DNA of 64,000 bases from Bacillota bacterium (lineage in GTDB: Bacteria > Bacillota > UBA994 > UBA5500): positions 1,988-65,987 of the forward strand of contig JAAYHE010000029.1 in the NCBI GenBank assembly GCA_012735505.1, read 5' to 3'. A model generated the notes under the pieces. It saw only the letters and a program-made list of their open reading frames with translations, was not told the DNA's origin and did no database searches. Numbering within the stretch: the first letter of the stretch is position 1; each line of letters opens with the position of its first letter. The position numbers were made by a program, and so were the translations under genes. Shown piece by piece: positions 20,178 to 38,722 of this stretch.

Positions 20178-20193
20178 ACCATCCACTCCCATG

Positions 20194-22141: not shown

Positions 22142-22210
22142 ACTAACGGAGTGAATTTGTATGACAAGAAGCGTTCTGTCGAACGCTCCCTTTTGGATTC
22201 CTCGAAATAG

Positions 22211-22248
22211 AACCACGGCCTGATTCATAGCAGGTGGCCGTGGTTTTT
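22211..22248 (+). terminator. rho-independent terminator (aaccacggcc/ggccgtggtt + T5) after the deacetylase gene
   Basis: A 10-bp perfect stem that overlaps the stop of the convergent MFS gene. Confidence 0.5.
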
Positions 22249-23473: not shown

Positions 23474-23582
23474 TTGGCAGCCTCCTTGCGATGTTACTGG
23501 TTGGTACAAGCCAACCTATGTTAGCATCACCTTCCGCAAGGCACCGTATACAAGACTCGAAGCCACCCAGAGGCAGGCGCTA

Positions 23583-24990: not shown

Positions 24991-25004
24991 AGGAGGTTTT
25001 ATAT

Positions 25005-25742
25005 TTGGACCCCGTTGCTTTTACGGTTGCTGGCATCCCTATCCGCTGGTATGGCATCTTGATTGCGGCGGGAATGTTTATCGGGTTACAATTGGCCTTG
25101 CGCGAAATCAAACGTTTAGGCGAAGATGAGGACAAGTTTATCGACCTGTTTTTGTGGGCCATACCGGCGGCGATCTTAGGAGCCCGTTTATACTACGTTG
25201 CTTTTTCCGGTATGCTAGATTGGTATTTGCGACATCCCCTAGAAATTCTCAACACCCGGCACGGAGGTATGGCCATCCATGGTGGGCTAATAGGGGGCTT
25301 CTTAGCGGGTTGGATATATACGCGCCGGCACCGGATCAACTTTCGTAAGTGGGCAGATGTCGCAGCGCCTAGTGTCATTTTGGGGCAAGCGATAGGGCGT
25401 TGGGGCAACTTTTTTAACCAAGAGGCTTACGGACGCGAAACAAATTTGCCTTGGGCCATGTACATTGATGGGGCTTATCGGCATCCTACTTTTCTTTATG
25501 AATTCCTGTGGAATATGTTGGTGTTTGCCTGGTTGTTAAGGCAACGGCGTCGAAAAAGATTCGATGGCGAAATAGTGCTTTGGTATTTCATGCTCTATTC
25601 CATAGGGCGCTTCTTTATCGAAGGTTTGCGTACCGACAGCCTCATGCTGGGGCCTTTGCGTGTTGCCCAGCTACTGAGTTTGTTGGTAATACTGATTAGC
25701 GGCTGGCTCCTGAGACGCGGTAGACAAAAGGTGCAAAGCTGA
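25005..25742 (+). CDS. lgt: prolipoprotein diacylglyceryl transferase Lgt
   Basis: Lgt signature motifs (IRWYGIL, HGGLIGG, GNFFNQEAYG). TTG start 8 nt after AAGGAGG. Confidence 0.85.
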   Translation: MDPVAFTVAGIPIRWYGILIAAGMFIGLQLALREIKRLGEDEDKFIDLFLWAIPAAILGARLYYVAFSGMLDWYLRHPLEILNTRHGGMAIHGGLIGGFLAGWIYTRRHRINFRKWADVAAPSVILGQAIGRWGNFFNQEAYGRETNLPWAMYIDGAYRHPTFLYEFLWNMLVFAWLLRQRRRKRFDGEIVLWYFMLYSIGRFFIEGLRTDSLMLGPLRVAQLLSLLVILISGWLLRRGRQKVQS

Positions 25743-25797
25743 AGAAAATGGGCAGAAGGGTCATCTCCAGGGCGAGATGGCCTTTTTGTTTTGAGGT

Positions 25798-26247
25798 TTA
25801 GGTAATCCCTCTGGTTGTTAGCCAGCTGATTAACGGGTATCCTAGGCCGACTACCACAACAGCCTCGCTAATTGATAAGGTCAACACGCACAACCAATAG
25901 GGTAAACCTAGCATCGGTGCTAAATAGATACTCACTAAAAATCCGTTTAGCAGCACCGGCCAGACATATGCCAGCCAACTATCTCTCGTGCGATAGGTCA
26001 AATAGGCGGCCATTAGGGTAATCAAGCTACCGCCGAAAATGTCTACCGGGCCTAATCCACCTAAGAAGTTGGCCAACATTACCCCTATATAGAGGGCTAC
26101 TATCGACTCGGGAAATATAATGGGTAATACCGTCAAAGCTTCACTCGCTCTAAATTGAATGTGTCCAAAGCCGACAGGCGCAACCACGAAGGTTATAGTC
26201 ACATACAGGCTAGCAATTATTGCCCCTCGTACCAATCTTTTTGTCAC
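25798..26247 (-). CDS. queT: QueT-family queuosine-precursor transporter (ECF S-component-like)
   Basis: A roughly 150-aa 5-TM protein with the RASEALTVLP motif characteristic of QueT. GTG start preferred (RBS GAGGATGG). Confidence 0.55.
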   Translation of the reverse strand: MTKRLVRGAIIASLYVTITFVVAPVGFGHIQFRASEALTVLPIIFPESIVALYIGVMLANFLGGLGPVDIFGGSLITLMAAYLTYRTRDSWLAYVWPVLLNGFLVSIYLAPMLGLPYWLCVLTLSISEAVVVVGLGYPLISWLTTRGIT

Positions 26248-26530
26248 TTCGTCCACCATCCTCGTGCGGTAAATTCAGTCTTTAGCAGCAGTGTCAAAGT
26301 TGACTCAGCAAACATAGTCTAATAGAACAACAGGTAAATAGCAACTTGGCGCGATGAAAGTGCAAGCTGGTTAACACACTCAGGGGAGAAAATACATATT
26401 ATGCAGCATGCGCCTGGTTAAGAAGTCGTGGTGGAACACAATTATGCTCCTTTTCATAAGATGGTCTGAGAGTACCGCACGACGCGCTCCCTGGCGCCGA
26501 GCAGAATGAGCAAAGGAGGGAAAAGGAAGC

Positions 26531-27133
26531 ATGTGGAATAGCAGTAAGCTGTCAGGCGGTCTGCGCGAGATAAGTACCAGGGCAGTTTGTGCCAAGGGAC
26601 AAAAGCGTTTTCGTCAGATAGATAGCATCGCAACTAGCCAACCGGCTGAAATGGTCTTAGGGCATCGGATCACCAGCCATTCCTTTACAGCAAGGCCCAA
26701 CGTCAATTCGGTAGAAATAAAAGGTAGGTATGATGTGCATATCTGGTATACATACGCCCAAGGCGCTTTGACGGCCGTGGAGAAAAAGACTGTGCACTAC
26801 ACTGAACATCTGCCTGTGGTAGAGCTAGAGGGCACACGTTTGGGCCAAAACGAAACTGTTGAAGTCGAAGTCATCAGGGATCCATCAGTGACCAATGTGC
26901 AAGTTAGGCGCGGCGCAGTTCAAGTCGAAGTGGAAGTGGAGTTTTATGTTGAAATTACCGGAGAGACGAAACTCTGGGTAAGAGTCTACGAGCCTCCCTT
27001 TGCCGACGACAAGAAAGATAAGAAAGCGTTTGACCTTGACCTTAGCAGCGATTACTTCGATGAAGATGACTTCGATGAAGATGGGGAATATGACGACGAA
27101 TTTGAGGATGAAGACCTAGATTTCGTTCCATAA
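26531..27133 (+). CDS. cotE: spore coat morphogenetic protein CotE with an acidic C-terminal tail
   Basis: Aligns with B. subtilis CotE: RAVCAKGQKRF / KAVVAKGRKF, VEIKGRYDVHIWYTYA / VEIEGYYDINVWYSYA, VEITGETKLWV / EVVGETKVVV. It has a poly-acidic tail DEDDFDEDGEYDDEFEDEDLDFVP. Confidence 0.75.
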   Translation: MWNSSKLSGGLREISTRAVCAKGQKRFRQIDSIATSQPAEMVLGHRITSHSFTARPNVNSVEIKGRYDVHIWYTYAQGALTAVEKKTVHYTEHLPVVELEGTRLGQNETVEVEVIRDPSVTNVQVRRGAVQVEVEVEFYVEITGETKLWVRVYEPPFADDKKDKKAFDLDLSSDYFDEDDFDEDGEYDDEFEDEDLDFVP

Positions 27134-27272
27134 TCCCTCCTCTGCTGCTGCAGATGCCGTAGGACTTTGCTCCAGAGGATGACTCTGGAGTTCTTTTTTT
27201 ATAGAGGGTCTTTAGCGCACCGCTTTTCGTACAACAACATATTTTGTAGGGGATGATTGGGGGTGCAGCAGT

Positions 27273-28625
27273 GTGATCAGAGTACAGCTGTACAAATTGC
27301 CACAAACTGGCGAAATACGATTGCCAGCAAACTTTATCAAAGGACGTAGAATCAATGCTAATAACATAATCGTATCTTTTGGTCAAAGACAGGTGGAAGC
27401 TTCTCTAGAGTCCGATCCACACCCTAGTCCTCGCTTTAGGGTCGGACTAAGTTCCGACCTTATGTCTGAGCTAGGTCTAAGGTCCGGTGTCAGGCTGAGA
27501 GCATTTTGGGACGCTCGCAAGCAGCAATTTCGTTTGGGGCCTGTTGTCGCTATCATGGTCTGGCGTTATCGCAGGGTGTCGTCTGCTTGGTTGTTCGGGG
27601 CAGCAACCGACATGGCTCGCACTTTTGTGCGTTTAGCCCGGAGCAGGGGCGTAGTCGCTTATGCTTTTTCTCCTCGCGATATAGATTGGAATAGCAAAGG
27701 GGTTATCGGTTTTGTGCCCGCCGGCAGAGGTTGGCGTAGGGTAAGCCTACCTTTGCCTGATGTGGTTTATGACCGCATCCAGAGTCGGGCCTTAGACGCT
27801 ACTCGCCGCATGCAGAATGTTAAGCGACAACTGATGGCTCTAGAAGGTTTGCATTATTTTAACCCGTGTTTTCTAGATAAATGGGATACTTATCAGGCTT
27901 TAGTGAAAGACCCGATAGTTCAGCGCTACTTGCCTAGGACTGAAAAATTAACTTCCTTGGATCAATTGGGCCCTTGGTTGCGCACTTACCCGACGGTTTA
28001 TATTAAACCCTCACGCGGTTCCTTAGGTCTTGGCATCGTTAAAATATCCCGCATGGCAAGAGGCTTTCGCTACCAACGTATCCGCATGGGGGGAGGTAGT
28101 CAGGCTGGCTTGTGCAGTTCACTCCCTAAACTGGAGCGACGCCTGCGGAACATACTGCCCAAACGAACTATGATTATCCAGCAAGGCTTGCGTTTGGCCC
28201 GATACAAAGGCAGGCCTTACGACATTCGGGTCATGGTACAGAAAACGACCCGAGGCAATTGGGTGTGCACCAATATGATTGCCCGGGTAGCATCAGCCGG
28301 TAGCGCCGTTTCTAATGTAGCCGAAGGAGGGACGATGATTTCCGTGCGCCGAGCTATCCGTGGCTCGCTAAGGATCAATGTTGGATCAGCCGTGCGTCGT
28401 ATTCGCCGAGGGGCGAGACTGATCGCTAGAGCTGTTGAAGAACAATACGGGCAAGAGTTCGGAGAGTTCGGCATCGACATGGCCTTAGATAGGCGTGGCA
28501 GGGTTTGGCTGATTGAAGTAAATGCAAAGCCTGGTAGGCAGACCGACGAACCGGGAACGCCTCCTTCTATGCGGCGGGTTACTCGTTACGCCATAGCGAA
28601 AGCAGGGTTTAGCGAAAGGGGGTGA
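27273..28625 (+). CDS. YheC/YheD-family ATP-grasp enzyme with an N-terminal tandem swapped-hairpin (AbrB/MraZ-like) module
   Basis: ATP-grasp C-terminal motifs (GLRLARYKGRPYDIRVMV, SNVAEGG, IDMALDRRGRVWLIEVNAKPG). They are shared with 30173.., 31252.. and 32597... The N-terminal roughly 100 aa carry two AbrB-like hairpin repeats. Confidence 0.7.
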   Translation: MIRVQLYKLPQTGEIRLPANFIKGRRINANNIIVSFGQRQVEASLESDPHPSPRFRVGLSSDLMSELGLRSGVRLRAFWDARKQQFRLGPVVAIMVWRYRRVSSAWLFGAATDMARTFVRLARSRGVVAYAFSPRDIDWNSKGVIGFVPAGRGWRRVSLPLPDVVYDRIQSRALDATRRMQNVKRQLMALEGLHYFNPCFLDKWDTYQALVKDPIVQRYLPRTEKLTSLDQLGPWLRTYPTVYIKPSRGSLGLGIVKISRMARGFRYQRIRMGGGSQAGLCSSLPKLERRLRNILPKRTMIIQQGLRLARYKGRPYDIRVMVQKTTRGNWVCTNMIARVASAGSAVSNVAEGGTMISVRRAIRGSLRINVGSAVRRIRRGARLIARAVEEQYGQEFGEFGIDMALDRRGRVWLIEVNAKPGRQTDEPGTPPSMRRVTRYAIAKAGFSERG

Positions 28626-28629
28626 GCTA

Positions 28630-30042
28630 GTGGCGCGGAGCCTAGTTATTATGCCTTCTGAAACTAATCGGGCTATCTTAGCAGAGCTGTTGCCCGATGT
28701 AGTTGTCAGCCCCACCTATCAAACGGGAGCTTGGCGTTTCATCATTCGCTTCGGTGATGCAACAGGAAGTGATGACAACGCACTAGTTCTCAATCGGGCT
28801 AGTGCATTGGCCACACCCGATCTAACTGCTAAGGCTCAAGAACATTGGCGAGCCAGTTCCTTACGGTATCACAAGCCGGAAAACAGGGTTACTTTCTATA
28901 AAAGATACCGGGTGCAGGTTTTTGACTGTACCGCTATTTACATGCAAAGGGTTGAAATTGGCAGCCGCCGGGTACGTGTCATACGGCCGAACTTGTCTCG
29001 AGAAACACGGCGTGTAAGTGAACTGGCTTGGCGCGCCTTATATACAGCTGGTTTAGATATAGGTGCAGTAGATATTGGCCTCTCTAGTAGTGGCAAGTTA
29101 TATGTTCTGAGTATCAATCCGTGCCCTCGCTTTAATAGAGCCATTGGGGCAGCATATGCGCGGCACATAACAGCTTGGATGCAGCGGATGGAAGGTCGTG
29201 GAGCTGCTGGCCCCTTGCGATCTTTACTCAACCCTCAAGAAAATGAGTGCCCCCAATACCTGCTGGGGGCAGATCCCGAGTTTACCTTGCGTGACGCTCG
29301 CACGGGGCGCATGGTTTTTGCCTCGGATTATTTCCCGATGCAGGGAGTCATTGGTTGCGATGCTCGGCGCGTAAGGCTAGGCCGGTCCGGTTATCCTCTA
29401 GCCGAGGTAAGGCCTGCTCCAACCCAATGCCCCTTAGAGCTTTACGAAAGCATTCGCGATCTCCTATTGATGGCCCACCGCAAGGTTCCTCGCCGCTACA
29501 TCCAGTGGCGAGCTGGAACTTTACCATTCAGCCAACTGCCGGTTGGAGGACACATCCATTTTAGTATGTTACCTACTAACCATTTTTTACGAGCACTAGA
29601 TAATAGTTTAGCTGTTGTTTTCCTAATGCTAGAAAACCCTGGAGCGGCTCGCAGACGGCGCCGCAGTTATGGTTGGTTGGGTGACTATCGTCTCAAAAAG
29701 CATGGCGGATTTGAATATCGTGCTATCCCTAGTTGGCTAGTCAGTCCAGTATTTGCCCGCGGGGCTTTGTGTTTGGCCAAAGTTATAGGGTGTGACTGGC
29801 ATCGTTGGCGTTACGATTTTTTCCTCCGTCCTGAAGCCCAAGTTGCCTTTAAAAGAGCTGATCAAGATTACTTTCGAGTCGAATTAGCGAAAGTGCTTGT
29901 AGCTATTAGGTCGTTATCTAGTTATGTCAAATATTCCCAAGAAATCGAGGCGCTGTTGAATTACGTTGAGCAAGGACGGCGCTGGACTACAGCGACCGAC
30001 ATCAGACGCAGTTGGCGATTACGCGCTTCTAGTCGCACTTAG
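28630..30042 (+). CDS. fusion protein: truncated ATP-grasp C-terminal subdomain plus COOH-NH2 ligase-like (glutamine-synthetase-fold amidoligase) domain
   Basis: The N-terminal roughly 190 aa match only the C-terminal lobe of the neighbouring ATP-grasps (AVDIGLSSSGKLYVLSINPCP). The C-terminal roughly 270 aa have GADPEF...GGHIHFS motifs reminiscent of GCS2 / phiEco32-like COOH-NH2 ligases. Confidence 0.5.
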   Translation: MARSLVIMPSETNRAILAELLPDVVVSPTYQTGAWRFIIRFGDATGSDDNALVLNRASALATPDLTAKAQEHWRASSLRYHKPENRVTFYKRYRVQVFDCTAIYMQRVEIGSRRVRVIRPNLSRETRRVSELAWRALYTAGLDIGAVDIGLSSSGKLYVLSINPCPRFNRAIGAAYARHITAWMQRMEGRGAAGPLRSLLNPQENECPQYLLGADPEFTLRDARTGRMVFASDYFPMQGVIGCDARRVRLGRSGYPLAEVRPAPTQCPLELYESIRDLLLMAHRKVPRRYIQWRAGTLPFSQLPVGGHIHFSMLPTNHFLRALDNSLAVVFLMLENPGAARRRRRSYGWLGDYRLKKHGGFEYRAIPSWLVSPVFARGALCLAKVIGCDWHRWRYDFFLRPEAQVAFKRADQDYFRVELAKVLVAIRSLSSYVKYSQEIEALLNYVEQGRRWTTATDIRRSWRLRASSRT

Positions 30043-30045
30043 CGC

Positions 30046-30109
30046 GGGCACAAGGTTTTCGCGAAAACCATATATTGTACTACTATAGGAAACATCCTTC
30101 CTTGTGCCC
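30046..30109 (+). promoter_or_regulatory. nested inverted repeats between paralogs 2 and 3 (gggcacaagg...ccttgtgccc enclosing palindrome ggttttcgcgaaaacc)
   Basis: 10-bp perfect arms at 30046-30055 and 30100-30109, and a 16-bp perfect palindrome at 30054-30069. No U-tract follows. Confidence 0.3.
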
Positions 30110-30172
30110 ACGTGTGGCTGGGCTGTAATGAGACGGGTACACCAGAGGGAGAGGCAGTGGGGGTGGCTATAT

Positions 30173-31255
30173 ATGGTAAAGGGTAGAGACTTAGTAGGGG
30201 TGCTATCTATCCGCCGGCCTGGTCCGCGTCCTTTTGCAGAAGGTAGATTCTTTCGGGAATTGATGTGGGCAGGCCGGCAAGTTGGCATACGACTAATTAT
30301 ATTTAGCCCGTTGGACATCGACTGGGAGAGGGGTAGAGTCTTAGGTTTTGTTTATGTGCCCAGTAGGGGCTGGCGGTCCAGATATTATCCTGTTCCGCGC
30401 CTTATTTACGACCGTTTGTTTCCCAGCTCTGGTACCTGGGGGTTGTACTATAACCAAGTTATCCGCATGCGGCGTGTTTTTCGGGTAAGAATGCTGAACC
30501 GAGGTTTGCGTGGGAAATGGCAGATGTATCGCATTGTGAGAAGGTACGAGGATCTACGGCCCTATCTGCCCGAAACTCGCCTCGGCAGTTACCGCAACTT
30601 GTCTGTCATGTTAGCCAAATACAGTACCGTATTCGTTAAGCCTGTTTTTGGCAGTGGTGGCAAAGGCATTTGCCGCATCCAAAGGGGACGCGACGGTTAT
30701 TTGGTCGATAGGAGTGGCAGGCCGCGCATTCGCACGCACTCTCTATTAGGCGTCATCTATGCTTTAGGGGGCATAAATCGGCGTTATCTGATTCAGCAAG
30801 GCTTGAAGCTCAACTACTTAAACGGGAGAACTTTTGATGTTCGCAGCATCGTGCAAAGGAACGGTCAAGGCGAATGGCAGGTTTCCGGCAAAGCGATCCG
30901 AGCTGGTCGACGGGGCAGAATTACTTCCAATTTACATACGGGAGGCCGGGCCTACAACGTTTCTTCCGTATTGCAGCAGTATTTTCCTGATCGAGCTGAA
31001 GAGATTGAAAAAGAAATGGAAGCATTGGCAGTACGAGTGGCAGAGGTCATGAGTCAGCGTGCGGGTCCTCTATGCGACCTAGGACTAGATATGGGCGTAG
31101 ATGTTAATGGTAAAGTATGGTTGATAGAGGTTAACTCTAAGCCAGGGCGCACTGTCTTTCTGCGCATGGGCGATCGAGAAGGCCGGCGCCGGGTTGTGCA
31201 GACGTTAATGGAATATGCCCGCTATCAGATAGATCAACAGCGTCAGAGGAGGTGA
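30173..31255 (+). CDS. YheC/YheD-family ATP-grasp enzyme (no N-terminal extension)
   Basis: Motifs GLKLNYLNGRTFDVRSIV, GRITSNLHTGG, LDMGVDVNGKVWLIEVNSKPG. ATG at 30173 follows GGGGGTGG. The ORF track starts at 30104. Confidence 0.7.
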   Translation: MVKGRDLVGVLSIRRPGPRPFAEGRFFRELMWAGRQVGIRLIIFSPLDIDWERGRVLGFVYVPSRGWRSRYYPVPRLIYDRLFPSSGTWGLYYNQVIRMRRVFRVRMLNRGLRGKWQMYRIVRRYEDLRPYLPETRLGSYRNLSVMLAKYSTVFVKPVFGSGGKGICRIQRGRDGYLVDRSGRPRIRTHSLLGVIYALGGINRRYLIQQGLKLNYLNGRTFDVRSIVQRNGQGEWQVSGKAIRAGRRGRITSNLHTGGRAYNVSSVLQQYFPDRAEEIEKEMEALAVRVAEVMSQRAGPLCDLGLDMGVDVNGKVWLIEVNSKPGRTVFLRMGDREGRRRVVQTLMEYARYQIDQQRQRR

Positions 31256-32619
31256 TACCGGATATGGTGGAAACAGGTTATGCGCGGGTGCTTGGTTATG
31301 CTAGCGAATCAGCTTCGTGTATTTTGCCCCGCAGTTTGCTCGCCCGTCTCGGCTGGCGCCAAGGCGACATAGTCAATATAGCTTTCGGCCGTGCCAGCAG
31401 GCCCGTTAAGTTAAGGGCAGGCGATGACGATGTTTGGCGGGTTTCTACCGACTTGTTGCGCCATATAGGTCTTCGTCCCAGGAAATGGCTCTATTGCGTT
31501 GACACTGGGCGCAAGTTGATACGCTTTGGTCCATTAATCGGGATTATGACAACTTGGCATGTTACTCCGTATTTTCGTTCTGTGATGCGAGCAGCTGCCC
31601 GCAAAGGTATGATGGCGGTTGTTTTTAGACCCTATGACTTGCGCCTTGGTGGCAGGCAAATGAGTGCCTGGGCTCTGGTTGGCGGCGGAATGCAGAGAAT
31701 ACGGGTCCCTTGGCCCGATGTGGTTTATAACCGCATCCCCAACCGGGGGGGAGAATTGTTAGGCAGCACTAGAGCCTGCAGACGATTATTAGCACGCGCT
31801 TCAATCCCTGTTTTTAATAGCAAATTTTTTCATAAATGGCGCATCCATCGCCTCCTGCGGAGAGATGAACAGGCTAGGCAATATTTACCTGAGACACAAC
31901 CCATGGTTAGTATGAAACAAGCACGTCAGTTTTTGCACAAATACCCGATGATTTATCTCAAACCCAATGGCGGTAGTAAGGGACAAGGAATTGTACGCAT
32001 TAGGCGTGGGCAAGGGTACTCGGTCTCTTTCCGTCGGGGTCACCATAATTTCCAGCGTACATGTACCAGTTGGCTTGAGGCAGGAAATTTAGCCAGAAGA
32101 GGTATGCATAGACGGACTTACGTTGTGCAGGAAGGTGTGCCCTTAGCTAGGTACCATGGGCGTCCTTTCGACGTGCGGGTAACGTTATACAAGAATGGAA
32201 ATGGGGAATGGATTCCCTGCGGTCCAGCAGCAAAAATAGCCGGGCGGGGTAGCATCACAACCCATGTGGCTAACGGAGGACGAGTAGTTCCATTAGATCG
32301 AGTGCTCCGCCACGTCTTCGGCAGCGAGGCAGAGACAATGCGAGTGCGGATTGAAACGGCTTCTATAGACTTGGCTCGCGCGGTAGAACGGGTAACCGGG
32401 CTCGAATTGGGTGAGCTGGGATTAGACATCGGTCTTACTACCCAAGGCCGTGTTGCGATGTTTGAAGCCAATAGCAAGCCTGGCCGTGCCATCTTTGCGG
32501 CTGCTTGGAATCGTGACGATAGGCGGAAATCGTTATCGTACCTATGTGATTATGCCGCTTCTTTAGCAGGGTTTACGAATAGCGGGGTGAAGACTGATGC
32601 CAAAACTGCTAACTGTTAG
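31252..32619 (+). CDS. YheC/YheD-family ATP-grasp enzyme with an N-terminal tandem swapped-hairpin module
   Basis: Motifs GVPLARYHGRPFDVRVTL, GSITTHVANGG, LDIGLTTQGRVAMFEANSKPG. The N-terminus has CILPRSLLARLGWRQGDIVNIAF and WRVSTDLLRHIGLRPRKWLYCVDTGRKLIRF. The start is ambiguous (GTG 31252 or ATG 31264). Confidence 0.7.
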   Translation: MIPDMVETGYARVLGYASESASCILPRSLLARLGWRQGDIVNIAFGRASRPVKLRAGDDDVWRVSTDLLRHIGLRPRKWLYCVDTGRKLIRFGPLIGIMTTWHVTPYFRSVMRAAARKGMMAVVFRPYDLRLGGRQMSAWALVGGGMQRIRVPWPDVVYNRIPNRGGELLGSTRACRRLLARASIPVFNSKFFHKWRIHRLLRRDEQARQYLPETQPMVSMKQARQFLHKYPMIYLKPNGGSKGQGIVRIRRGQGYSVSFRRGHHNFQRTCTSWLEAGNLARRGMHRRTYVVQEGVPLARYHGRPFDVRVTLYKNGNGEWIPCGPAAKIAGRGSITTHVANGGRVVPLDRVLRHVFGSEAETMRVRIETASIDLARAVERVTGLELGELGLDIGLTTQGRVAMFEANSKPGRAIFAAAWNRDDRRKSLSYLCDYAASLAGFTNSGVKTDAKTANC

Positions 32620-33895
32620 GGTGTCATTCGCTGGCACAAGTAAGATTAACCTCCATCTGCCCGGATGCAAAAATGAATCTGTATCCCTCAGTATGGGATC
32701 TTTTAACGCCCTTGCACAAATGCAACCGGCAGACACAGCCGAGTTGGTCCTACATCGCACAGCTGCCCGTCAGATGGGGTTAAGGGATAAAGAAAAAATA
32801 GCTTATTACCGGCAGGGTAAAACCGTTAAGACAGGGCCTGTAGTAGGAATCTTAACCGCAGGCCAAGGTGTAGTTCCGGGGAACCGCGAGATGTTTCGAT
32901 TCGTGCAAAGGGCCTGCCAGCAGGCGGGCCTGGTGGCTTATGTTTTTACCCCAGCTGATGTAGATTGGACGCGCAACGTGGTCAGGGGATATCAATATCG
33001 TCAGGGACGCTGGCAATCTCGCCGTTTTCCTTTGCCCGACGTCGTCTATAATCGTGTCCCCAATCGGCAATTGGAGAGGGGTAGCGCCGTACGGTTGGTT
33101 AAACAGCGCCTGCGTTCTCGCGGCATTCCTTATTATAACTCCCATTATCTTAATAAATATGACTTGTATCGCATCTTGAGAGACACCGAAGTAGAGCCCC
33201 ACTTACCTTGGACCAGATCAGTAAGCAAAACTAGCGATATCGCAGGCGCCTTAAGACGGTTTGGCAGTGTTTACCTAAAGCCTAAACATGCTTTTGCTGG
33301 CAAAGGTATTTTGCGCGTCGATCTGCGGCCGTCTGGCTGGACTCTAAGATATCGTATGGGTCGTAATAGGGAAGTTAATGGCAGCACTCTAGCCGCTTTG
33401 TGGCCTGTACTTCATCGCCATATGGGCGGAAAAGGCTACGTGGTGCAGCAAGCTATACCTTTAGCACGCTATCAGGGGAGAGCTTTCGATGTGCGGTTGC
33501 TGGCACAGAAAAATGAGGCAGGTTACTGGCAAGTAACTGGCATGGGAATTCGCGTTGCTGGTAAGGGTAGCATCACAACACATGTTCCCAATGGTGGCTT
33601 TATCGCATCTGCTGATAAGGTCATTCCCGAGGTGTTCGGTTCACAAGCAGCTGAGGTTAGAGAAAATGTCGTGCGCTTAGCCCTTATGGTGGCACCCATC
33701 GTAGAAAAAAGTAGTCGGGGGCTATTTGGCGAGATGTCCATGGACATTGGTATTGATAGACAAGGGTGGCCTTGGTTCTTTGAAGCCAACGCCAAACCCA
33801 TGCGTTTTGACGAATCAGGTATCAGGAGGCGAGGGTTGGCGACCTTGGTCGCATATGCGAAATATCTCGCAGGAGTGCCCGAGGGAGGAGGGTAG
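32597..33895 (+). CDS. YheC/YheD-family ATP-grasp enzyme (single N-terminal hairpin-like motif)
   Basis: Motifs AIPLARYQGRAFDVRLLA, GSITTHVPNGG, MDIGIDRQGWPWFFEANAKP. It overlaps the previous gene by 23 nt. Confidence 0.7.
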   Translation: MPKLLTVRVSFAGTSKINLHLPGCKNESVSLSMGSFNALAQMQPADTAELVLHRTAARQMGLRDKEKIAYYRQGKTVKTGPVVGILTAGQGVVPGNREMFRFVQRACQQAGLVAYVFTPADVDWTRNVVRGYQYRQGRWQSRRFPLPDVVYNRVPNRQLERGSAVRLVKQRLRSRGIPYYNSHYLNKYDLYRILRDTEVEPHLPWTRSVSKTSDIAGALRRFGSVYLKPKHAFAGKGILRVDLRPSGWTLRYRMGRNREVNGSTLAALWPVLHRHMGGKGYVVQQAIPLARYQGRAFDVRLLAQKNEAGYWQVTGMGIRVAGKGSITTHVPNGGFIASADKVIPEVFGSQAAEVRENVVRLALMVAPIVEKSSRGLFGEMSMDIGIDRQGWPWFFEANAKPMRFDESGIRRRGLATLVAYAKYLAGVPEGGG

Positions 33896-33901
33896 CAAGG
33901 C

Positions 33902-34372
33902 ATGGTAAGGTACCAGCGCATCACTGAGCTTGATTTGGCGCGGCACAGGAGAGCTATGTTGCGCCTGATACGAGCCCACGGTGATAGGCACATCACACGT
34001 AAAGCCTACCAGAATTTGCGTACCATGCGGCCCGCGAGGTTAGCGCGAGAGGGGAATGTGATCTGGACAGCTTGGGATGGCGATCTCTTAGTAGGTGTGA
34101 TTATTTGTGAAAGTTATGGTAAGCGTACTTCTTTTTCAGTTGTGCGCAAGAGTCACCGGTCGCGCGGAATTGCTAAGGCACTTTTACTGCGTGCAGTAAA
34201 CTCTATGGGTAGGTTTTATGCCGAGGTAGCGTCTGATAACCTGGCTAGCATGAAAGTGCTATTTGGCATGGGTATGGTAGCCTACGATGCTTTCGTGCGC
34301 TATGGCAAAATCATCTTACGTGTACGTAATGGCTTCAACGTTTCATCGCTTGAGGAAGAAGACCGTGGGTGA
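33902..34372 (+). CDS. GNAT-fold acetyltransferase-like protein
   Basis: 156 aa with an acyl-CoA-binding-like segment VVRKSHRSRGIAKALL. It follows the last ATP-grasp gene by 6 nt and has a GGGAGGAGGG RBS. Confidence 0.45.
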   Translation: MVRYQRITELDLARHRRAMLRLIRAHGDRHITRKAYQNLRTMRPARLAREGNVIWTAWDGDLLVGVIICESYGKRTSFSVVRKSHRSRGIAKALLLRAVNSMGRFYAEVASDNLASMKVLFGMGMVAYDAFVRYGKIILRVRNGFNVSSLEEEDRG

Positions 34373-34535
34373 AATATTAATCAGGCCGCGACCTGTTGGG
34401 AGAGTCTCCGACAGGTTGTGGCCTGATTGTTTAAGTGAAGGTCTCTTTTGCTTCCTGGCTCAGGCAAGCATAAAGTTAAAGTCCGCCCCATAGAAATGAA
34501 ACGATGGAGAATACTGCGGGGAAGGAGCGATTGGC

Positions 34536-35888
34536 GTGAACATATGGCGTGGGGCAGACATCGCTCAAATATTTGGTGTAGAAGATGAGGGGTTAGTGCA
34601 AAATGGAGTGTTTTGTTTAAGCACTCCTTTCGGGCCGGCCGCACCTTCCGTCTATCGGGGTGATGTACGTTTCCTACAGTGGTTAGGGGCTGAGCTGCCC
34701 AGCATTACCACTAGGCTGGGGCGCCTAGGATTAAGTCGACTGTTACCTACGCCTGCAGGCCAATATTATGCCAATCTAGGTGGTGAATATGTGCTGCTGG
34801 CAACACTAGAGACGGGGCCGATTTGCGATGTCCATAACGCCTTTGAATTATTTACCGTCTCTGTTGGCCTAGCCCATGTCCATGCACAAGATGTGGGGGG
34901 AATAACGAGCAGTTCTCCTGATTGGTCAACTTATTATCAGGCTCAACGCGATAAGTTAGAACAAATAAGGCCGCCAGATCTATCTAGGCGAGCGCGGGCT
35001 GCCTGGGCTTTGTTGGAGGAGAGTTGGCAGCTTTGTATCGACGAAGCAGTGAGTCTGCTGGCAGATATACCTCGCGAAGCACGTGCGACTTGTTTAACCT
35101 TGGGGTTGAAAAGCTTCAGTGATTTTATTTATTTACCTGATTTACACCGAGTGCATTATAACCCGATTGCTAATTGCCGCCTGGATTCACCTGCCGTTGA
35201 CATCGCGCGTCTGTTGCTATCTGCTTCTGGCGATGTGCGTGTGATACATAACATGTTGTTATCGTACCAGCGGGTGAGGGAAATACCACCGGTGGAAGGG
35301 CAAGAAATATTGGCGCACCTTTGGTTCCCCCATGAAATAGATCTGCAAGTATTAGGAGAGCAAGGAGCAAATACGCTAAGCGTGCAGCGGCATTATAATC
35401 TTTTGCGAGATAAGATCGCGATGATAGCCGAAGTGGAAGATTTACTCTCACCCTTTGAACAAGGGGAAAATAATGAAGAGGAAACGGAGGTGCTGTCGAT
35501 GGCTAAAAGACAATCGAGGGAAGCGAGGACGAACCCGGTGACCTTAACTACGGCAGGAGAGGAAGACAATATTTTAACGCAAGAGCAAGTAGAATTGGTG
35601 GAACCGGCTGGGGACGGCGAGCCAGTAAATGTTAGTCAACCGCAAGAGGTGCCTGAACCCGCGCCAGAAGTGGCAGAGGAGGAAACAGTGCCACGTATCA
35701 ACCTAGAGGCGAAAAGAGAGGTAAAACCTATAGTCTGGGGTCCTTTCCCTAAACCTTTGGGAGCCGCCGATGACGAGGATGACGAGGAAGATAACATTGC
35801 AGTTGAACAAGAACCATTATCTGAGGAAGTAAGCTCGGAAGAACCAGATGCCTCAATAGAAACGGAGCCTCAACCAGATATTTGTTAA
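34536..35888 (+). CDS. CotS/kinase-fold-like spore coat protein candidate with a roughly 150-aa poly-acidic C-terminal tail
   Basis: The N-terminal roughly 300 aa are globular with a degenerate phosphotransferase-like segment (IYLPDLHRVHYNPIANC...VDIARLL). The C-terminus is low-complexity, rich in E/D/P (DDEDDEEDNIAVEQEPLSEEVSSEEPD...). GTG start after AAGGAG. Confidence 0.35.
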   Translation: MNIWRGADIAQIFGVEDEGLVQNGVFCLSTPFGPAAPSVYRGDVRFLQWLGAELPSITTRLGRLGLSRLLPTPAGQYYANLGGEYVLLATLETGPICDVHNAFELFTVSVGLAHVHAQDVGGITSSSPDWSTYYQAQRDKLEQIRPPDLSRRARAAWALLEESWQLCIDEAVSLLADIPREARATCLTLGLKSFSDFIYLPDLHRVHYNPIANCRLDSPAVDIARLLLSASGDVRVIHNMLLSYQRVREIPPVEGQEILAHLWFPHEIDLQVLGEQGANTLSVQRHYNLLRDKIAMIAEVEDLLSPFEQGENNEEETEVLSMAKRQSREARTNPVTLTTAGEEDNILTQEQVELVEPAGDGEPVNVSQPQEVPEPAPEVAEEETVPRINLEAKREVKPIVWGPFPKPLGAADDEDDEEDNIAVEQEPLSEEVSSEEPDASIETEPQPDIC

Positions 35889-35950
35889 TGGCTGCGTCGG
35901 CAAATGGGGCATACTAGTTATGTCACGTAGCTGTAAATCTAGCAGAAAGG

Positions 35951-36127
35951 ATGATGGTCGTGGCTCGAGGACGAGGCTTTATGTCCGACGAACTCAAGTA
36001 CCGACTGGCTGACGAGCTAGGTTTCGGGGATATAGTTCGCCAACATGGTTGGGGAGCTATCACTACCCGGGATGCAGGCAATCTGGTAAAGGCGGCTATC
36101 GCCAAGGCCCAGCAGATGATGCAATAA
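35951..36127 (+). CDS. ssp: alpha/beta-type small acid-soluble spore protein (SASP)
   Basis: Translation ...MSDELKYRLADELGFGDIVRQHGWGAITTRDAGNLVKAAIAKAQQMMQ follows the alpha/beta SASP pattern (KYEIAxEFGV...TSRxNG...KRLVxxAQQ). Three alternative in-frame starts exist (35951, GTG 35960, ATG 35981). Below the ORF-track cutoff. Confidence 0.5.
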   Translation: MMVVARGRGFMSDELKYRLADELGFGDIVRQHGWGAITTRDAGNLVKAAIAKAQQMMQ

Positions 36128-36143
36128 CAGCTATAGTGACAGA

Positions 36144-36175
36144 GGGCTGTCTCCGTCAGGAGCAGCCCTTATTTT
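36144..36175 (+). terminator. rho-independent terminator after the SASP gene
   Basis: A gggctgtctcc / ggagcagccc stem followed by TTATTTT. Confidence 0.5.
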
Positions 36176-36294
36176 ACTTCGCAGCAAAGTTGACAGGAGT
36201 ATATTACCGCAGCTAGCGCCAAACATGGTGCTGTAGGCAGTTACAGCTGCATAAACATAGAATAGCTCACTCTTGGTACCACCCTTATTTCAAC

Positions 36295-36323
36295 TTGACA
36301 CCCGAGGCCGTAATCTGTATGAA
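36295..36323 (+). promoter_or_regulatory. sigma-A-type promoter (TTGACA -35, 17 nt spacer, TATGAA -10) about 170 nt upstream of the small-peptide ORF
   Basis: Perfect -35 at 36295-36300 and a 5-of-6 -10 at 36318-36323. Confidence 0.4.
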
Positions 36324-36495
36324 TTGGCACATTCCGTTTGCTCGCGATTGGCAACAAGAGCACAGACCTCCCATTTGAAATTCTTCTGCATTTTCTTATC
36401 AGTAGGGCAGGAATACGCTAGGTAATTAGAGAATATGGCATTTAGTGAGTGAGGCTGACCTCTACAGCCTTGAGGTACCAGGGAGGTGAAAAAGC

Positions 36496-36573
36496 ATGTG
36501 GGATACCTATAATATCATTTTTGCCATTGTGGTCGTTGTAGTTGGCGTTGTCGCCTTAATGTCTTCTAAGTAG
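36496..36573 (+). CDS. 25-aa hydrophobic single-TM peptide (MWDTYNIIFAIVVVVVGVVALMSSK)
   Basis: A strong GGGAGGTG RBS lies 9 nt upstream and a clean terminator immediately downstream. It has its own promoter, and an anti-SD CCTCCC sits in its 5' leader. Confidence 0.4.
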   Translation: MWDTYNIIFAIVVVVVGVVALMSSK

Positions 36574-36608
36574 CTACAAAGACCTATAAGACACTTGGCT
36601 CTAGCTGA

Positions 36609-36644
36609 CCCATAACTAGGTGAAGTTATGGGCAGCTTTTTTTT
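36609..36644 (+). terminator. rho-independent terminator (cccataact/agttatggg + T8)
   Basis: A 9-bp stem with a 6-7 nt loop, followed by TTTTTTTT. Confidence 0.6.
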
Positions 36645-36885
36645 GCCCATTTTTAGGCTTACGCAGGTGGTGCATCCGTACGCTTGCACTGCTTGAACAG
36701 CCTTAGTTAGGCCTCGAGGCTTACCTGCTGCTGCCCCTTTAGGGCATTAGTCACATAAGTCAGTAGAATTTCTGAAAAAGCAGTGGGGAAAGAAGGAGTT
36801 GTTATGGCTGAAGCGAATATAATGTGGTGAAAAGTGGTGTATAGTGGGGATAAGTGGTGTAGTACCCAGCAAAGGGGGGAGGCAA

Positions 36886-37317
36886 GTGCTCCTAGGCGAG
36901 TATCAACATAGCGTTGATGAAAAGGGACGACTGACTATTCCCTCGCGTTTGCGAGAAGGTTTAGGCGAACGATTCGTGGTTACTAAGGGATTAGACAGTT
37001 GTCTCTTTGTCTACCCCCTAGCAGAGTGGAATGCTCTAGAAACTAAGTTAAGGGCTTTGCCCCTAACACGTCCCGAGGCCCGTTCTGTCGTTCGTTTGTT
37101 CTTCTCTGGCGCCATCGAGTGTGAGCTTGATCGCCAAGGTCGCATTTTATTGCCTCCCAATTTGCGTAGCCATGCTCGACTCGTAAAAGATGCATACATT
37201 ATTGGCGTATCTAATCGAGTAGAAATTTGGGATAAGGAAACATGGGAAGAATACAGTCAACAAGCTGCGGCTTCTTTCGAGCAAGCTGCTGCGCATCTGG
37301 ATGATCTAGGCATCTAG
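36886..37317 (+). CDS. mraZ: transcriptional regulator MraZ
   Basis: A GTG start (VLLGEYQHSVDEKGRLTIP) lies 6 nt after AAAGGGGGGAGG. It carries the tandem DxxGR swapped-hairpin repeats typical of MraZ. Confidence 0.85.
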   Translation: MLLGEYQHSVDEKGRLTIPSRLREGLGERFVVTKGLDSCLFVYPLAEWNALETKLRALPLTRPEARSVVRLFFSGAIECELDRQGRILLPPNLRSHARLVKDAYIIGVSNRVEIWDKETWEEYSQQAAASFEQAAAHLDDLGI

Positions 37318-37333
37318 CGAGAGAGGTGGCAAA

Positions 37334-38263
37334 ATGAGCTTTTCACATGAACCTGTATTACTGCAAGAAACTCTAGACCTATTGGAGCCACTACCCGGGG
37401 AAACCGTCGTAGACTGCACTTTAGGTGCTGGTGGACACACCATGGCCATGTGGCAACGCATGCAAGGCAAGGGACGACTGATTGCTATCGACCAAGACCC
37501 TGCTGCTATTGCCAACGCTAAGGCCACGCTGCCAACTGAAATTGTACTTGTGCATGACAACTTTCGCAATTTAAAATCCATCCTTCTATCATTAGGCGTT
37601 GACTATGCGCACCGGATACTTTTTGACCTCGGAGTATCATCGCCACAATTAGATATAGCTGAACGGGGCTTTAGTTATCAACAAGAGGCGGCACTCGATA
37701 TGCGCATGAACCCTGACAATAGCTTGACAGCTGCCCAATTAGTAAATGAATCGACGGAGGAAGAACTAGCACGCATCATCTGGGAATATGGAGAAGAACG
37801 CTGGGCAAAGCGCATAGCAGCCTTTGTGGTTAAGTATCGGCAAGAAAAGGGCCCAATCGAGACAACAGGTCAGTTGGTAGACATTATTAAGCGGGCCGTG
37901 CCAGCCGCTGCTCGCCAAAATGGACCTCATCCAGCCAAGCGCACCTTTCAGGCTTTACGTATCGCCGTTAATAATGAATTAGAGCTCTTGGCGCCTGCCT
38001 TGGAGATAGCGATTGATTCGTTAACACCGGGCGGGCGTGTAGCGGTTATTTCTTTTCATTCCTTAGAAGATCGTATCGTAAAACAGGTCTTCCGCAAACT
38101 GGCACAGGGTTGTACTTGCCCGCCCCGTTTACCTGTCTGTATTTGTGGGAAGGAGCCGAAGTTAAAAATCATAACGAAAAGACCGGTCACCCCGAGTAAA
38201 AGTGAAATAAAAAATAACCCTAGGGCCCGCAGCTCTAAACTGCGTGTAGCTGAGCGCTGCTAA
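37334..38263 (+). CDS. rsmH: 16S rRNA (cytosine1402-N4)-methyltransferase RsmH (MraW)
   Basis: SAM-binding motif VDCTLGAGGH. Full-length match to RsmH architecture. Confidence 0.9.
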   Translation: MSFSHEPVLLQETLDLLEPLPGETVVDCTLGAGGHTMAMWQRMQGKGRLIAIDQDPAAIANAKATLPTEIVLVHDNFRNLKSILLSLGVDYAHRILFDLGVSSPQLDIAERGFSYQQEAALDMRMNPDNSLTAAQLVNESTEEELARIIWEYGEERWAKRIAAFVVKYRQEKGPIETTGQLVDIIKRAVPAAARQNGPHPAKRTFQALRIAVNNELELLAPALEIAIDSLTPGGRVAVISFHSLEDRIVKQVFRKLAQGCTCPPRLPVCICGKEPKLKIITKRPVTPSKSEIKNNPRARSSKLRVAERC

Positions 38264-38293
38264 GGTTCTAGCTAAAAGGAGATGTGAATAACC

Positions 38294-38671: not shown

Positions 38672-38722
38672 CAATTTACAGCTCGCCGCAAGTTTCCGCG
38701 GCGGGCTGCTGTTTAAGGAGGC

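Follow-up and report, generated by a model that had tools for sequence, protein, structure and literature searches.

A cotE-adjacent operon of YheC/D-type ATP-grasp ligases and a COOH-NH2 ligase fusion in an uncultured spore-former, a candidate amide-bond-forming system of the spore coat

Gene content and layout of the locus

The gene cluster examined here, from an uncultured spore-former (Bacillota bacterium, contig JAAYHE010000029.1), is real and sits beside the spore-coat organiser gene cotE (Table 1); the whole 64,000-nt stretch of DNA that was analysed is referred to below as the window. Pfam searches recognised cotE, four complete YheC/D ATP-grasp genes (G1, G3, G4, and G5; 230-259 bits on PF14398, whose cut-off is 26.8), a COOH-NH2-ligase fusion (G2), and a GNAT gene, all where the original prediction, made by a model from the sequence, had placed them, and the motifs it had listed (ARY.GR.FDVR, GSITTHV.NGG, and E.N.KPG) are present. 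The ligase operon occupies 27273-34372 on the + strand with a terminator-like hairpin on each side, the first of which parts it from cotE. Its genes are packed as tightly as had been described: G1 and G2 are 4 nt apart, G3 and G4 overlap by 4 nt, G4 and G5 overlap by 23 nt, and the GNAT gene begins 6 nt after the G5 stop, with a 130-nt gap between G2 and G3. The ATG at 30173, which has a GGGGGTGG ribosome-binding site in front of it, is probably the start of G3. Inspection of ORFs and Pfam matches found no transporter, precursor-peptide, or amino-acid-biosynthesis gene in the operon.

Table 1. Features of the cotE-linked ligase locus, in window coordinates.
Feature	Position	Strand	Evidence
Promoter-like motifs, mother-cell type, mACm-N14-16-CATAnnnT, 5' of cotE	26375..26465	+	pattern matches
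cotE, outer-coat morphogenetic protein	26531..27133	+	PF10628, E 4.9e-33
Terminator-like hairpin and T-run after cotE	27169..27191	+	9-bp stem, then TCTTTTTTTA
σK-like promoter motif CACC-N15-CATATTTT	27218..27245	+	54 nt upstream of G1
G1, YheC/D ATP-grasp ligase, N-terminal β-barrel, pI 11.5	27273..28625	+	PF14398, 3.4e-71
G2 N-terminal half, degenerate ATP-grasp fold lacking the lid, predicted to be inactive	28630..29262	+	
G2 C-terminal half, COOH-NH2 ligase type 2 (YbdK / γ-glutamyl-cysteine ligase / PafA-like glutamine-synthetase fold)	29263..30042	+	
Second σK-like motif CACA-N15-CATATATT, in the gap before G3	30049..30076	+	consensus match only
G3, short YheC-type ATP-grasp ligase without N-terminal barrel, pI 11.3	30173..31255 (alternative start 30104)	+	PF14398, 1.6e-75
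G4, YheD-length ATP-grasp ligase, N-terminal β-barrel, pI 11.0	31252..32619	+	PF14398, 6e-77
G5, ATP-grasp ligase, N-terminal β-barrel, altered glycine loop, pI 10.5	32597..33895	+	PF14398, 4e-68
Single-domain GNAT acyltransferase, motif RSRGIA, pI 11.0	33902..34372	+	PF00583, 27.2 bits vs cut-off 20.7
Strong terminator-like hairpin, 20-bp stem, ends ligase operon	34381..34426	+	
Acidic CotS/APH-fold pseudokinase, pI 4.4	34536..35888	+	family profile vs 4pdy, E 1.5e-8
Divergent α/β-type SASP-like gene, 48 aa	35981..36127 (alternative start 35951)	+	PF00269, E 8e-4, 19.8 bits, cut-off 22

Upstream of cotE, the mother-cell-type pattern matches at 26375, 26435, and 26437, as a consensus match only. 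The σK-like motif 5' of G1 recurs in 4-5 lineages; three related loci (L009, L013, and L014) have it at -54 to -66, and a fourth (L012) has it with one extra spacer base. We infer from sequence that the ligase operon is transcribed in the mother cell during sporulation.

The GNAT protein is a single domain of 156 aa with an acetyl-CoA-type R-x-x-G-x-A motif and not the two-domain FemABX architecture, which goes against its earlier description as a third amidoligase scaffold; its position after G5 is kept in L009, L012, L014, L016, and L019-L024. The next ORF had been called CotS-like. It has no Pfam match, and its TIGR02906 score is just 21 bits against a cut-off of 172.7, but the profile of its small family (13 representative clusters) matches the kinase-fold protein 4pdy and, weakly, YtaA, and that call is supported only in part. 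Conservation is missing at the catalytic HxDxxxxN and Mg-Asp positions, and the tail is low-complexity and acidic with a conserved VWxPFPxPL motif. This pseudokinase follows the GNAT gene in 6/6 full-type informative loci; it is a conserved neighbour and a candidate partner or substrate of the ligase system. The α/β SASP gene of the original prediction is a + strand ORF with PF00269 similarity, but its score falls below the cut-off; it is probably just a neighbour, outside the system.

Four ATP-grasp groups and a ligase fused to a degenerate ATP-grasp

Comparison with relatives places G1, G3, G4, and G5 in four separate orthologous groups, which are old, fixed in order, and not a local expansion. 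Peptococcaceae-like MAGs, Brevibacillus, and Desmospora have the groups in this fixed order too, and the "unusual five-gene expansion" first proposed is thereby set aside. The catalytic set K195, K237, Q293, D307, R309, E388, D392, E405, and N407 is kept in all four groups (11-13 members each; 11/11 in the G1 group and 13/13 in the G3 group), and by residue conservation the four enzymes are catalytically intact; in the glycine loop of G5, x-F replaces G-S. The substrate-loop signature differs by group (TH versus SN), which argues for the groups carrying out non-redundant steps.

The fold of these proteins is RimK/GshB/LysX/TTLL-like, with GshB a joint top match for G4. G1, G4, and G5 have an extra N-terminal (ββαβ)x2 barrel, missing from G3, whose matches to the cradle-loop barrels PEX1-N, p97/CDC48-N, UFD1-N, and AbrB are marginal (E 0.007-1.3); these matches are weak yet coherent, and the matched barrels are protein-binding. 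The G3 homologues are 350-400 aa long, and several bear the NCBI name YheC.

Five paralogs had been predicted. Four are complete ATP-grasps, but the fifth, G2, is a lid-less ATP-grasp remnant joined to a YbdK/GCS/PafA-like ligase. The metal and ATP residues of the ligase are invariant in 76 homologues, and the N-terminal half of G2 has none of its own catalytic residues; this half is predicted to be inactive, and the ligase domain is, as judged by residue conservation, catalytically intact. The ligase half is structurally nearest to the YbdK/GCS enzymes, which act on small molecules.

The loss of catalytic residues from one ATP-grasp copy, together with the strong self-interaction of YheD, which surrounds the forespore first as rings and later as a shell, would suit a mainly structural role in which these proteins are self-polymerising coat-basement components with a vestigial enzyme fold. 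However, the ATP-/Mg-binding and catalytic residues are fully conserved in the four groups, across distant lineages, and in the ligase domain, which indicates selection for catalysis, and we give a structural role almost no credence.

Conserved linkage, charge contrast, and proposed function

The original prediction had suggested comparing synteny across relatives, and the linkage of cotE, ligase, and YheC/D genes proved to be conserved: cotE and/or a YheC/D gene lies within 6.5 kb of the ligase in 30/30 informative non-redundant loci, and at least eight other lineages share the order cotE-G1-ligase-G3-G4-G5-GNAT-acidic pseudokinase. cotE is present in 14 of the 30 loci, in several different gene orders; the other 16 (Syntrophomonadaceae-like) have no cotE within 9 kb, and in cotE-less loci the usual direct neighbour of the ligase is a G5-type gene. 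In Brevibacillus and Desmospora the four-gene cassette is apart from cotE, in Paenibacillus cotE adjoins the ligase though the ATP-grasps lie elsewhere, and in Caldalkalibacillus the order is cotE-ligase-mutSL, with the ATP-grasps elsewhere and cotE in its classical mutS context. We conclude that cotE is genuinely linked in evolution to the COOH-NH2 ligase and to the YheC/D ATP-grasps.

The six enzymes are extremely basic (pI 10.3-11.5; net charge +6.4 to +11 per 100 aa, where the background for the window is 0.33 ± 2.66 per 100 aa). Per residue, no protein in the window is more acidic than the pseudokinase (-9.8 per 100 aa) and CotE (-9.0 per 100 aa); the latter (pI 4.6) has an Asp/Glu-rich C-terminal tail of ~45 residues ending ...EFEDEDLDFVP. 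This tail is acidic in 6 other loci too, and the pattern of basic enzymes with acidic neighbours recurs in 9 other loci checked (several genera and MAGs). Acidic CotE tails seem to be general and to occur also in species without a COOH-NH2 ligase of the G2 type. For metabolic enzymes of the window, a pI of 10-11.5 would be out of the ordinary.

That unusual pI counts against a role in the cytoplasmic metabolism of a small molecule or cofactor (a glutathione-like thiol, or cofactor glutamylation) for genes that simply happen to lie near cotE, as do the conservation of the cotE linkage across several gene orders and genera, the naming of the family as endospore coat-associated, and the localisation of B. 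subtilis YheD to the coat. YbdK/GCS and GshB are top structural matches, as such metabolism would predict, and there is weak HMM similarity to MptN and RimK-type glutamate ligases, but every score is far below its cut-off (TIGR00768, 19.3 versus 143.4). We consider this explanation very improbable.

That the substrate is a protein or peptide of the coat is plausible because of the RimK/GshB/LysX/TTLL-like fold, the basic enzymes beside acidic CotE, and the σK-like motifs; the nearest folds (GshB, RimK, LysX/ArgX, TTLL, and PafA) work on carboxylates of peptides and proteins, either at the C-terminus or on side chains. We tentatively propose, with somewhat less than even confidence, that this conserved, presumably mother-cell-expressed sporulation operon encodes a multi-enzyme, ATP-dependent, template-independent amide-bond-forming machine tied to CotE and acting on acidic coat-protein tails. 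Each of G1, G3, G4, and G5 would convert a carboxylate to an acyl-phosphate and attach an amino acid; the G2 ligase would form one more amide bond, probably at the carboxylate of a side chain, with its dead ATP-grasp half docking it onto an active ATP-grasp partner; and the GNAT would acylate the free amine as a cap. The likeliest acceptors would be Asp/Glu-rich coat-protein tails, with CotE the first candidate and the acidic pseudokinase another, and the coat scaffold would come to carry short peptide extensions or branches, in a bacterial counterpart to the glutamylation of S6 or of tubulin tails. We infer that the acceptor is a protein rather than free, and likewise its identity and the enzymes' division of labour. 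CotE cannot be the sole acceptor because so many ligase loci lack a nearby cotE. [quoted passage not shown]

Counterpoints to modification of protein tails are the seeming generality of acidic CotE tails, the separation of the cassette from cotE in Brevibacillus and Desmospora, the two-hybrid result for B. subtilis YheD given below, the marginal barrel matches, the equal suitability of basic enzymes for a free polyanionic product, and the closeness of the G2 ligase half to small-molecule enzymes (YbdK and GCL). The last two would fit non-ribosomal synthesis of a free, probably polyanionic, branched peptide or poly-amino-acid that is laid down in or beneath the coat, comparable to cyanophycin, poly-glutamate, or the stepwise peptides of the Mur type, with the ATP-grasps building the backbone, the GCS-like ligase adding side-chain amides, and the GNAT capping the N-terminus. 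Several non-redundant ligases in fixed order, like the stepwise MurC-F, the GshB match of G4, and the many ligase loci without cotE point the same way, and RimK is reportedly also able to make free poly-Glu. However, Pfam detects no exporter, amino-acid-supply gene, Mur-ligase, or cyanophycin-type domain in the operon, the adjacency of cotE and ligase holds even with cotE in its classical mutS context, and the extra barrel resembles protein-binding modules; we think a free polymer rather unlikely.

The same acidic tails could instead be substrates of an ATP-dependent isopeptide cross-linker, akin to PafA or graspetide ligases, which would join Asp/Glu side chains of CotE-type tails to Lys of other coat proteins and complement the transglutaminase Tgl. 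The best fold matches are, however, the amino-acid-adding GshB, RimK, and LysX and not macrocyclases, no Pup-like tag gene or leader peptide was seen among the ORFs, and cross-linking alone hardly explains four specialised ATP-grasps and a capping GNAT, making it improbable.

Comparison with known systems

B. subtilis YheC and YheD belong to the same family (PF14398) as G1, G3, G4, and G5 and are functionally uncharacterised in the literature. yheCD is under σE/SpoIIID control in the mother cell, and YheD is a coat protein; its deposition needs SpoIVA, and two-hybrid analysis found self-interaction only, with no contact with CotE or another morphogenetic protein, contrary to the CotE dependence originally stated. 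In the window, the short G3 (~360 aa, of the group NCBI names YheC) directly precedes the long G4 (~455 aa), a pair that we take, by length and order, to mirror yheC (363 aa) and yheD (453 aa). B. subtilis has only this pair, elsewhere on the chromosome, whereas here four groups, a COOH-NH2 ligase, and a GNAT lie beside cotE.

Relative to RimK, the C-terminal poly-glutamylase of ribosomal protein S6, and LysX/ArgX, which act on the tail of the carrier protein LysW, HMM scores here are far below the family cut-offs, a partner gene of the S6 or LysW type is absent, the extra barrel is present in G1, G4, and G5, and four paralogues stand alongside a GS-fold ligase. The TTLL glutamylases and glycylases are eukaryotic with other accessory domains, and their likeness to the operon is an analogy of logic only. 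The G2 ligase is in a different Pfam family (PF14395) from PafA/Dop of pupylation and the YbdK/γ-glutamyl-cysteine ligases, and, unlike them, is fused to an inactive ATP-grasp module. Cyanophycin synthetase resembles the proposed system in that two different ATP-dependent ligase folds cooperate, template-free, on a backbone-plus-branch poly-amino-acid, but CphA1 joins its ATP-grasp to a Mur-ligase domain in one polypeptide.

The closest comparison is with the neighbourhood of CotE, YheC/D ATP-grasp, and phiEco32-like COOH-NH2 ligase type 2, which has the same three components and whose association our synteny survey reproduces. Iyer, Abhiman, Burroughs, and Aravind (Mol Biosyst, 2009) reportedly predicted such a system, and peptide ligation in spore-coat/wall biogenesis, by comparative genomics, presumably the founding annotation of PF14398 and PF14395. 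The locus would thus belong to an already predicted, still uncharacterised type of system, and the novelty claimed for it earlier gives way. To that prediction we add the retained catalytic residues of all four ATP-grasps and the recurring σK-like motif, together with the fixed order of four orthologous groups, the predicted inactive ATP-grasp half of the ligase, the barrel at the N-terminus, the contrast in charge, and the pseudokinase neighbour; some of the latter may already be in the 2009 work.

Gene content and limits of the ligase operon

The array that the original prediction had described beside cotE proved to be real: nine genes, all on the + strand, lie between 26531 and 36127, and Pfam profiles confirmed their families with matches above the gathering cut-offs for the ATP-grasps, the ligase fusion and the GNAT. 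The four YheC/D ATP-grasp genes (G1, G3, G4 and G5) scored 230-259 bits (cut-off 26.8); G2, the ligase fusion, scored 291.3 bits (cut-off 25; E 6.7e-87) with the whole model, 1-254, covered; and the GNAT scored 27.2 bits (cut-off 20.7). The true start of G3 is probably the ATG at 30173, which has a GGGGGTGG ribosome-binding site ahead of it. Because terminator-like hairpins follow both cotE and the GNAT gene, the six enzyme genes form a unit of their own, the ligase operon.

Features of the cotE-ligase region
Feature	Coordinates	Strand	Profile match or remark
cotE	26531-27133	+	PF10628, E 4.9e-33
Terminator-like hairpin 3' of cotE	27169-27191
G1, YheC/D ATP-grasp	27273-28625	+	PF14398
G2, ligase fusion	28630-30042	+	PF14395 'phiEco32-like COOH-NH2 ligase type 2', residues 212-464
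G3, YheC/D ATP-grasp	30104-31255	+	PF14398
G4, YheC/D ATP-grasp	31252-32619	+	PF14398
G5, YheC/D ATP-grasp	32597-33895	+	PF14398
GNAT, 156 aa	33902-34372	+	PF00583
Terminator-like hairpin 3' of GNAT	34381-34426		20-bp stem
ORF read as acidic pseudokinase, 450 aa	34536-35888	+	Fold-level profile match
SASP-like ORF, small	35981-36127	+	PF00269, 19.8 bits

The window encodes the sporulation genes cotE, spoIIGA, sigE and sigG. Downstream of the SASP-like ORF come mraZ-rsmH-ftsL-pbpB and the remaining division and cell-wall cluster, and then spoIIGA-sigE-sigG; cotE and the ligase operon lie directly 5' of the mraZ cluster (36844-55436), with ftsA, ftsZ, spoIIGA, sigE and sigG following. This context of cotE differs from the Bacillus-type cotE-mutS-mutL arrangement, which Caldalkalibacillus (L011) keeps, with the ligase gene between cotE and mutS. 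Contig JAKPIM010000025.1 (L001) of the uncultured Bacillota MAG GCA_029549805.1 matches the window at 99.87% identity, and the locus also occurs in digester metagenomes. The ORFs of the ligase operon are intact in both assemblies; compared with L001, G2 carries two 1-bp indels (29925-29928) that compensate each other and alter only one or two codons. An MFS transporter gene on the - strand (23583-24990), intact in L001 as a 402-aa ORF, is shorter here by 1 bp at 24052 and by 4 bp at 24406, and these deletions split it into ORFs of 148, 108 and 199 aa. Either this strain carries a pseudogene here or the assembly is in error.

A σK-like motif, mACm-N14-16-CATAnnnT, lies 54 nt 5' of G1, and the same motif recurs at -54 to -66 of G1 in three homologous loci (L009, L013 and L014); L012 has a version whose spacer is one base longer. 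It also precedes G3. The whole window holds 9 matches against 6.2 ± 2.5 expected; since there is no overall enrichment, weight attaches only to where the matches lie and to their recurrence at orthologous loci, and 5 of the 8 + strand matches fall just 5' of cotE (three), G1 or G3. A σ70 promoter scan was uninformative (13 sites, 12 expected), and an Rfam scan of 20000-38000 found no regulatory RNAs. The σK-like motif occurs twice more (47044-47072) just 5' of a murA-type gene (47136-48392) in the cell-wall cluster, where it may mark a sporulation-specific internal promoter.

Predicted activities of the enzymes

We collected 11-13 orthologues for each of G1, G3, G4 and G5. The canonical ATP-grasp residues K195, K237, Q293, D307, R309, E388, D392, E405 and N407 (G4 numbering) are kept in all four groups, unchanged or with conservative substitutions. 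The groups differ in a loop signature (GSITTH in G4 and G5, GSxxSN in G1 and G3); G5 has x-F where G-S is expected in the glycine loop, and R165 is missing from the G3 group. The retained catalytic set together with these group-specific loop differences leads us to predict that all four ATP-grasps are active and non-redundant.

G1, G4 and G5 carry an additional N-terminal piece of ~95 residues that is absent from G3, and whose secondary-structure order in AF2 models is (ββαβ)x2. A profile of this piece gave marginal but coherent matches to PEX1-N (E 0.0067), p97/CDC48-N (~0.5), AbrB (0.4) and UFD1-N, pointing to a cradle-loop barrel of the AbrB/CDC48-N/UFD1-N type. Most cradle-loop barrels bind proteins or peptides. 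Pfam scans of the pieces returned nothing significant and hhalign against the window's own AbrB-type MraZ was negative (1.4% probability), so the assignment stays tentative.

The claim of five tandem ATP-grasp paralogs stood for the four complete genes and failed for the fifth. The AF2 model of G2 (pLDDT 93.3) has two halves. In an alignment of 76 G2 homologues all invariant residues fall at or after position 213 and none in the N-terminal half, which is without the lid carrying the KPxxGSxGxG loop and has 'LSINPCP' in place of the Mg-binding 'IEVNSKPG'. These three losses indicate that the supposed fifth paralog is a dead ATP-grasp remnant, predicted inactive from alignment and model. It is fused to a ligase half of glutamine-synthetase/GCS-like fold whose metal and ATP ligands are conserved and which is therefore predicted to be live. 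We infer that the remnant mediates docking to a partner ATP-grasp that is active; at loci without cotE, a G5-type gene directly adjoins the ligase gene.

FemABX ligases have two tandem GNAT domains in ~330-420 aa. The GNAT of this operon had been put forward as a third amidoligase scaffold of that type, a proposal we reject: the 156-aa protein is one small GNAT domain without the two-domain Fem architecture, and no Fem-family profile in Pfam or NCBIfam matched it. Its acyl-CoA-binding motif, (Q/R)-x-x-G-x-(G/A), is present as RSRGIA, of the acetyl-CoA type, and its closest PDB sequences are small acetyltransferases.

Three other system identities were also set aside. The YheC/D ATP-grasps resemble RimK at the level of the fold only, and membership of the RimK α-L-glutamate ligase family was rejected on scores of 19.3 bits for TIGR00768 (cut-off 143.4) and 16 for PF08443 (cut-off 21). 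A cyanophycin-synthetase-type system was rejected because the Mur-ligase domain is absent. A RiPP/graspetide system was rejected because there is no precursor ORF: the gaps in the operon (4, 130 and 6 nt, the 130-nt gap being 22 nt in the Peptococcaceae-like MAG L012) held no conserved small ORF that could encode a precursor peptide.

Acidic neighbors and the favored reaction

The six enzymes are strongly basic, with pI values of 10.3-11.5 and net charges of +6.4 to +11.0 per 100 residues; among the window's other 47 long ORFs the mean is 0.33 ± 2.66 and the highest value 6.0. The window's most acidic products per residue, CotE (-9.0) and the ORF at 34536-35888 (-9.8), are encoded on either side of the enzyme genes. 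The CotE tail peptide ends …DEDGEYDDEFEDEDLDFVP, and basic enzymes together with an Asp/Glu-rich acidic CotE tail are kept in the nine other loci checked, which span several genera and MAGs.

The ORF at 34536-35888 had been called CotS-like. A kinase-like fold is supported, since a profile of its family (13 representative clusters) matches the kinase-fold structure 4pdy over residues 10-306 (E 1.5e-8) and, weakly, YtaA. Membership of the CotS/spore kinase family did not hold up: there is no Pfam match, TIGR02906 gives 21.2 bits (cut-off 172.7), and the HxDxxxxN and Mg-binding Asp positions are both unconserved. We read it as an acidic pseudokinase of CotS/APH fold. Within its acidic low-complexity tail (35650-35700) lies an island, (I/L)VW(G/K)PFP(K/R)PLGA, that is near-invariant in the family (W, F and P ≥90%), is also present in the L009 and L012 pseudokinases, and looks like a docking motif. 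The neighboring ORF called an alpha/beta SASP does resemble PF00269 (E 8e-4), but its 19.8 bits fall just below the cut-off of 22.

In Desmospora activa (L014) the pseudokinase's place after the GNAT is taken by an acidic, His-rich repeat protein of 1,832 aa (13246-18744; no Pfam domain; net charge -165). It contains ~60 tandem repeats of ~20 aa (xIQSRHLxxGxVExxHIxD), has a high content of His, Ser, Asp and Glu, and ends in DDAKTEQDDDPSA repeats; it may belong to the cell surface or the coat, or be a candidate substrate.

The reading we favor, at somewhat short of even confidence, is that a mother-cell operon adds amino acids to carboxylates in the acidic tails of coat proteins, CotE first. 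The operon would be expressed in the mother cell; amino acids would be added in several specialized steps via acyl-phosphate intermediates, as by RimK, LysX and TTLL; the GS-fold ligase would form an amide on a side chain; and an amine would receive a cap from the GNAT. The same ATP-dependent chemistry might instead build isopeptide cross-links, which we consider improbable. Against modification of tails stands the fact that the ligase half of G2 is nearest to small-molecule enzymes; that the operon serves unrelated small-molecule metabolism is, in our judgment, decidedly improbable.

Conservation, prior knowledge and meaning

Best-hit matrices sort the ATP-grasps into four separate orthologous groups with a constant gene order, G1-(ligase)-G3-G4-G5-GNAT, which is also found in a 58%-identical MAG (L009), the Peptococcaceae-like MAG, Brevibacillus fulvus and Desmospora activa. 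The set of four is not the product of local expansion, and the earlier view of an unusual five-gene expansion is not supported. A single-protein scan of genome contigs yielded 4 loci; a metagenome scan with the ligase alignment yielded 80, which were used for statistics. The complete arrangement cotE-G1-ligase-G3-G4-G5-GNAT-pseudokinase occurs in L016, L019-L024 and L054, at ligase identities of 39-72%. At every one of the 30 informative non-redundant loci, cotE and/or a YheC/D gene was found no further than 6.5 kb from the ligase; 26 have an ATP-grasp gene and 14 have cotE. The association of cotE with the ligase also survives rearrangement, as ligase-cotE-G1-G5, as cotE-ligase with the cassette on the opposite strand, as cotE-ligase alone in Paenibacillus and as cotE-ligase-mutS-mutL in Caldalkalibacillus. 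In one metagenome locus, L090, two tandem cotE-like ORFs (1688-2872) are followed by four ATP-grasp genes and the ligase, with parts rearranged. Read from sequence, the operon is a conserved unit of five catalytically intact amide ligase domains and an acyltransferase, genetically tied to cotE.

Two features of this distribution tell against the coat-tail reading. Nearby cotE is absent from many ligase loci, and in Brevibacillus and Desmospora the four-gene cassette lies away from cotE and is without the ligase. A large Syntrophomonadaceae-like group (L010 and L030-L092, from metagenomes and Thermosyntropha) has only an overlapping pair of G5-type ATP-grasp and ligase genes, often with two further ATP-grasp genes ~6 kb upstream; no cotE was found within 9 kb, so the acceptor there must differ from a neighboring CotE. 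A free peptide or polymer, probably polyanionic, is a possible if doubtful alternative product.

The two B. subtilis proteins have been catalogued for two decades as coat proteins of unknown function. The yheCD genes are in the σE regulon and SpoIIID stimulates them; YheD is a basement-layer coat protein that self-interacts. CotE dependence, which had been assumed for both, is contradicted: YheD deposition depends on SpoIVA, and a two-hybrid assay showed no contact with CotE, which also counts against the proposed modification of CotE. Given the catalytic sets retained in the operon, a purely structural role seems very improbable. G3 homologues are 350-400 aa long, several of them named YheC at NCBI, and G4 homologues are ~455 aa. 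YheC has 363 aa and YheD 453 aa, so the B. subtilis pair probably corresponds to G3-G4.

We found no solved structure or established reaction for PF14398 or PF14395 members, and, in the literature searched, no experimental work on YheC/D, either family or coat glutamylation; a paper on Klebsiella CfmP deals with another ATP-grasp family, which is TupA-like. The names YheC/D-like ATP-grasp and phiEco32-like COOH-NH2 ligase type 2 come from Iyer, Abhiman, Burroughs and Aravind in 2009, who reportedly already noted the cotE, YheC/D and ligase neighborhood and predicted peptide modification of the spore coat or wall. The Pfam descriptions of PF14398 and PF14395 already record the same neighborhood and role. 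This locus, from an uncultured organism, thus adds a new and complete example to an already predicted kind of system, and the idea itself is not new.

What the locus and its relatives add is a sharper testable hypothesis, with defined enzymes whose active sites are each intact, a putative docking domain that is predicted to be inactive, the tails of CotE and of the acidic pseudokinase as candidate acceptors, and carriers that can be cultivated (Brevibacillus fulvus, Desmospora activa, Alicyclobacillus cellulosilyticus and Paenibacillus koleovorans). The assembled details and these carriers make a direct test straightforward. If the system modifies CotE-type acidic tails, spore assembly would involve post-translational chemistry of a new class, and the system could also partly explain the coat's resistance to extraction. 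More speculatively, and with considerable doubt on our part, four specialized ATP-grasp ligases, a PafA/GCS-like ligase and a capping acetyltransferase may together act as a 'coat code' machine that builds a defined branched peptide on the acidic tails of CotE and other coat proteins, such as the pseudokinase. Such a modification would govern recruitment or covalent anchoring of outer-coat proteins and would supply the long-missing function of YheC/YheD; in an extracytoplasmic-like protein shell, it would be the bacterial equivalent of the glutamylation of tubulin tails or of pupylation.
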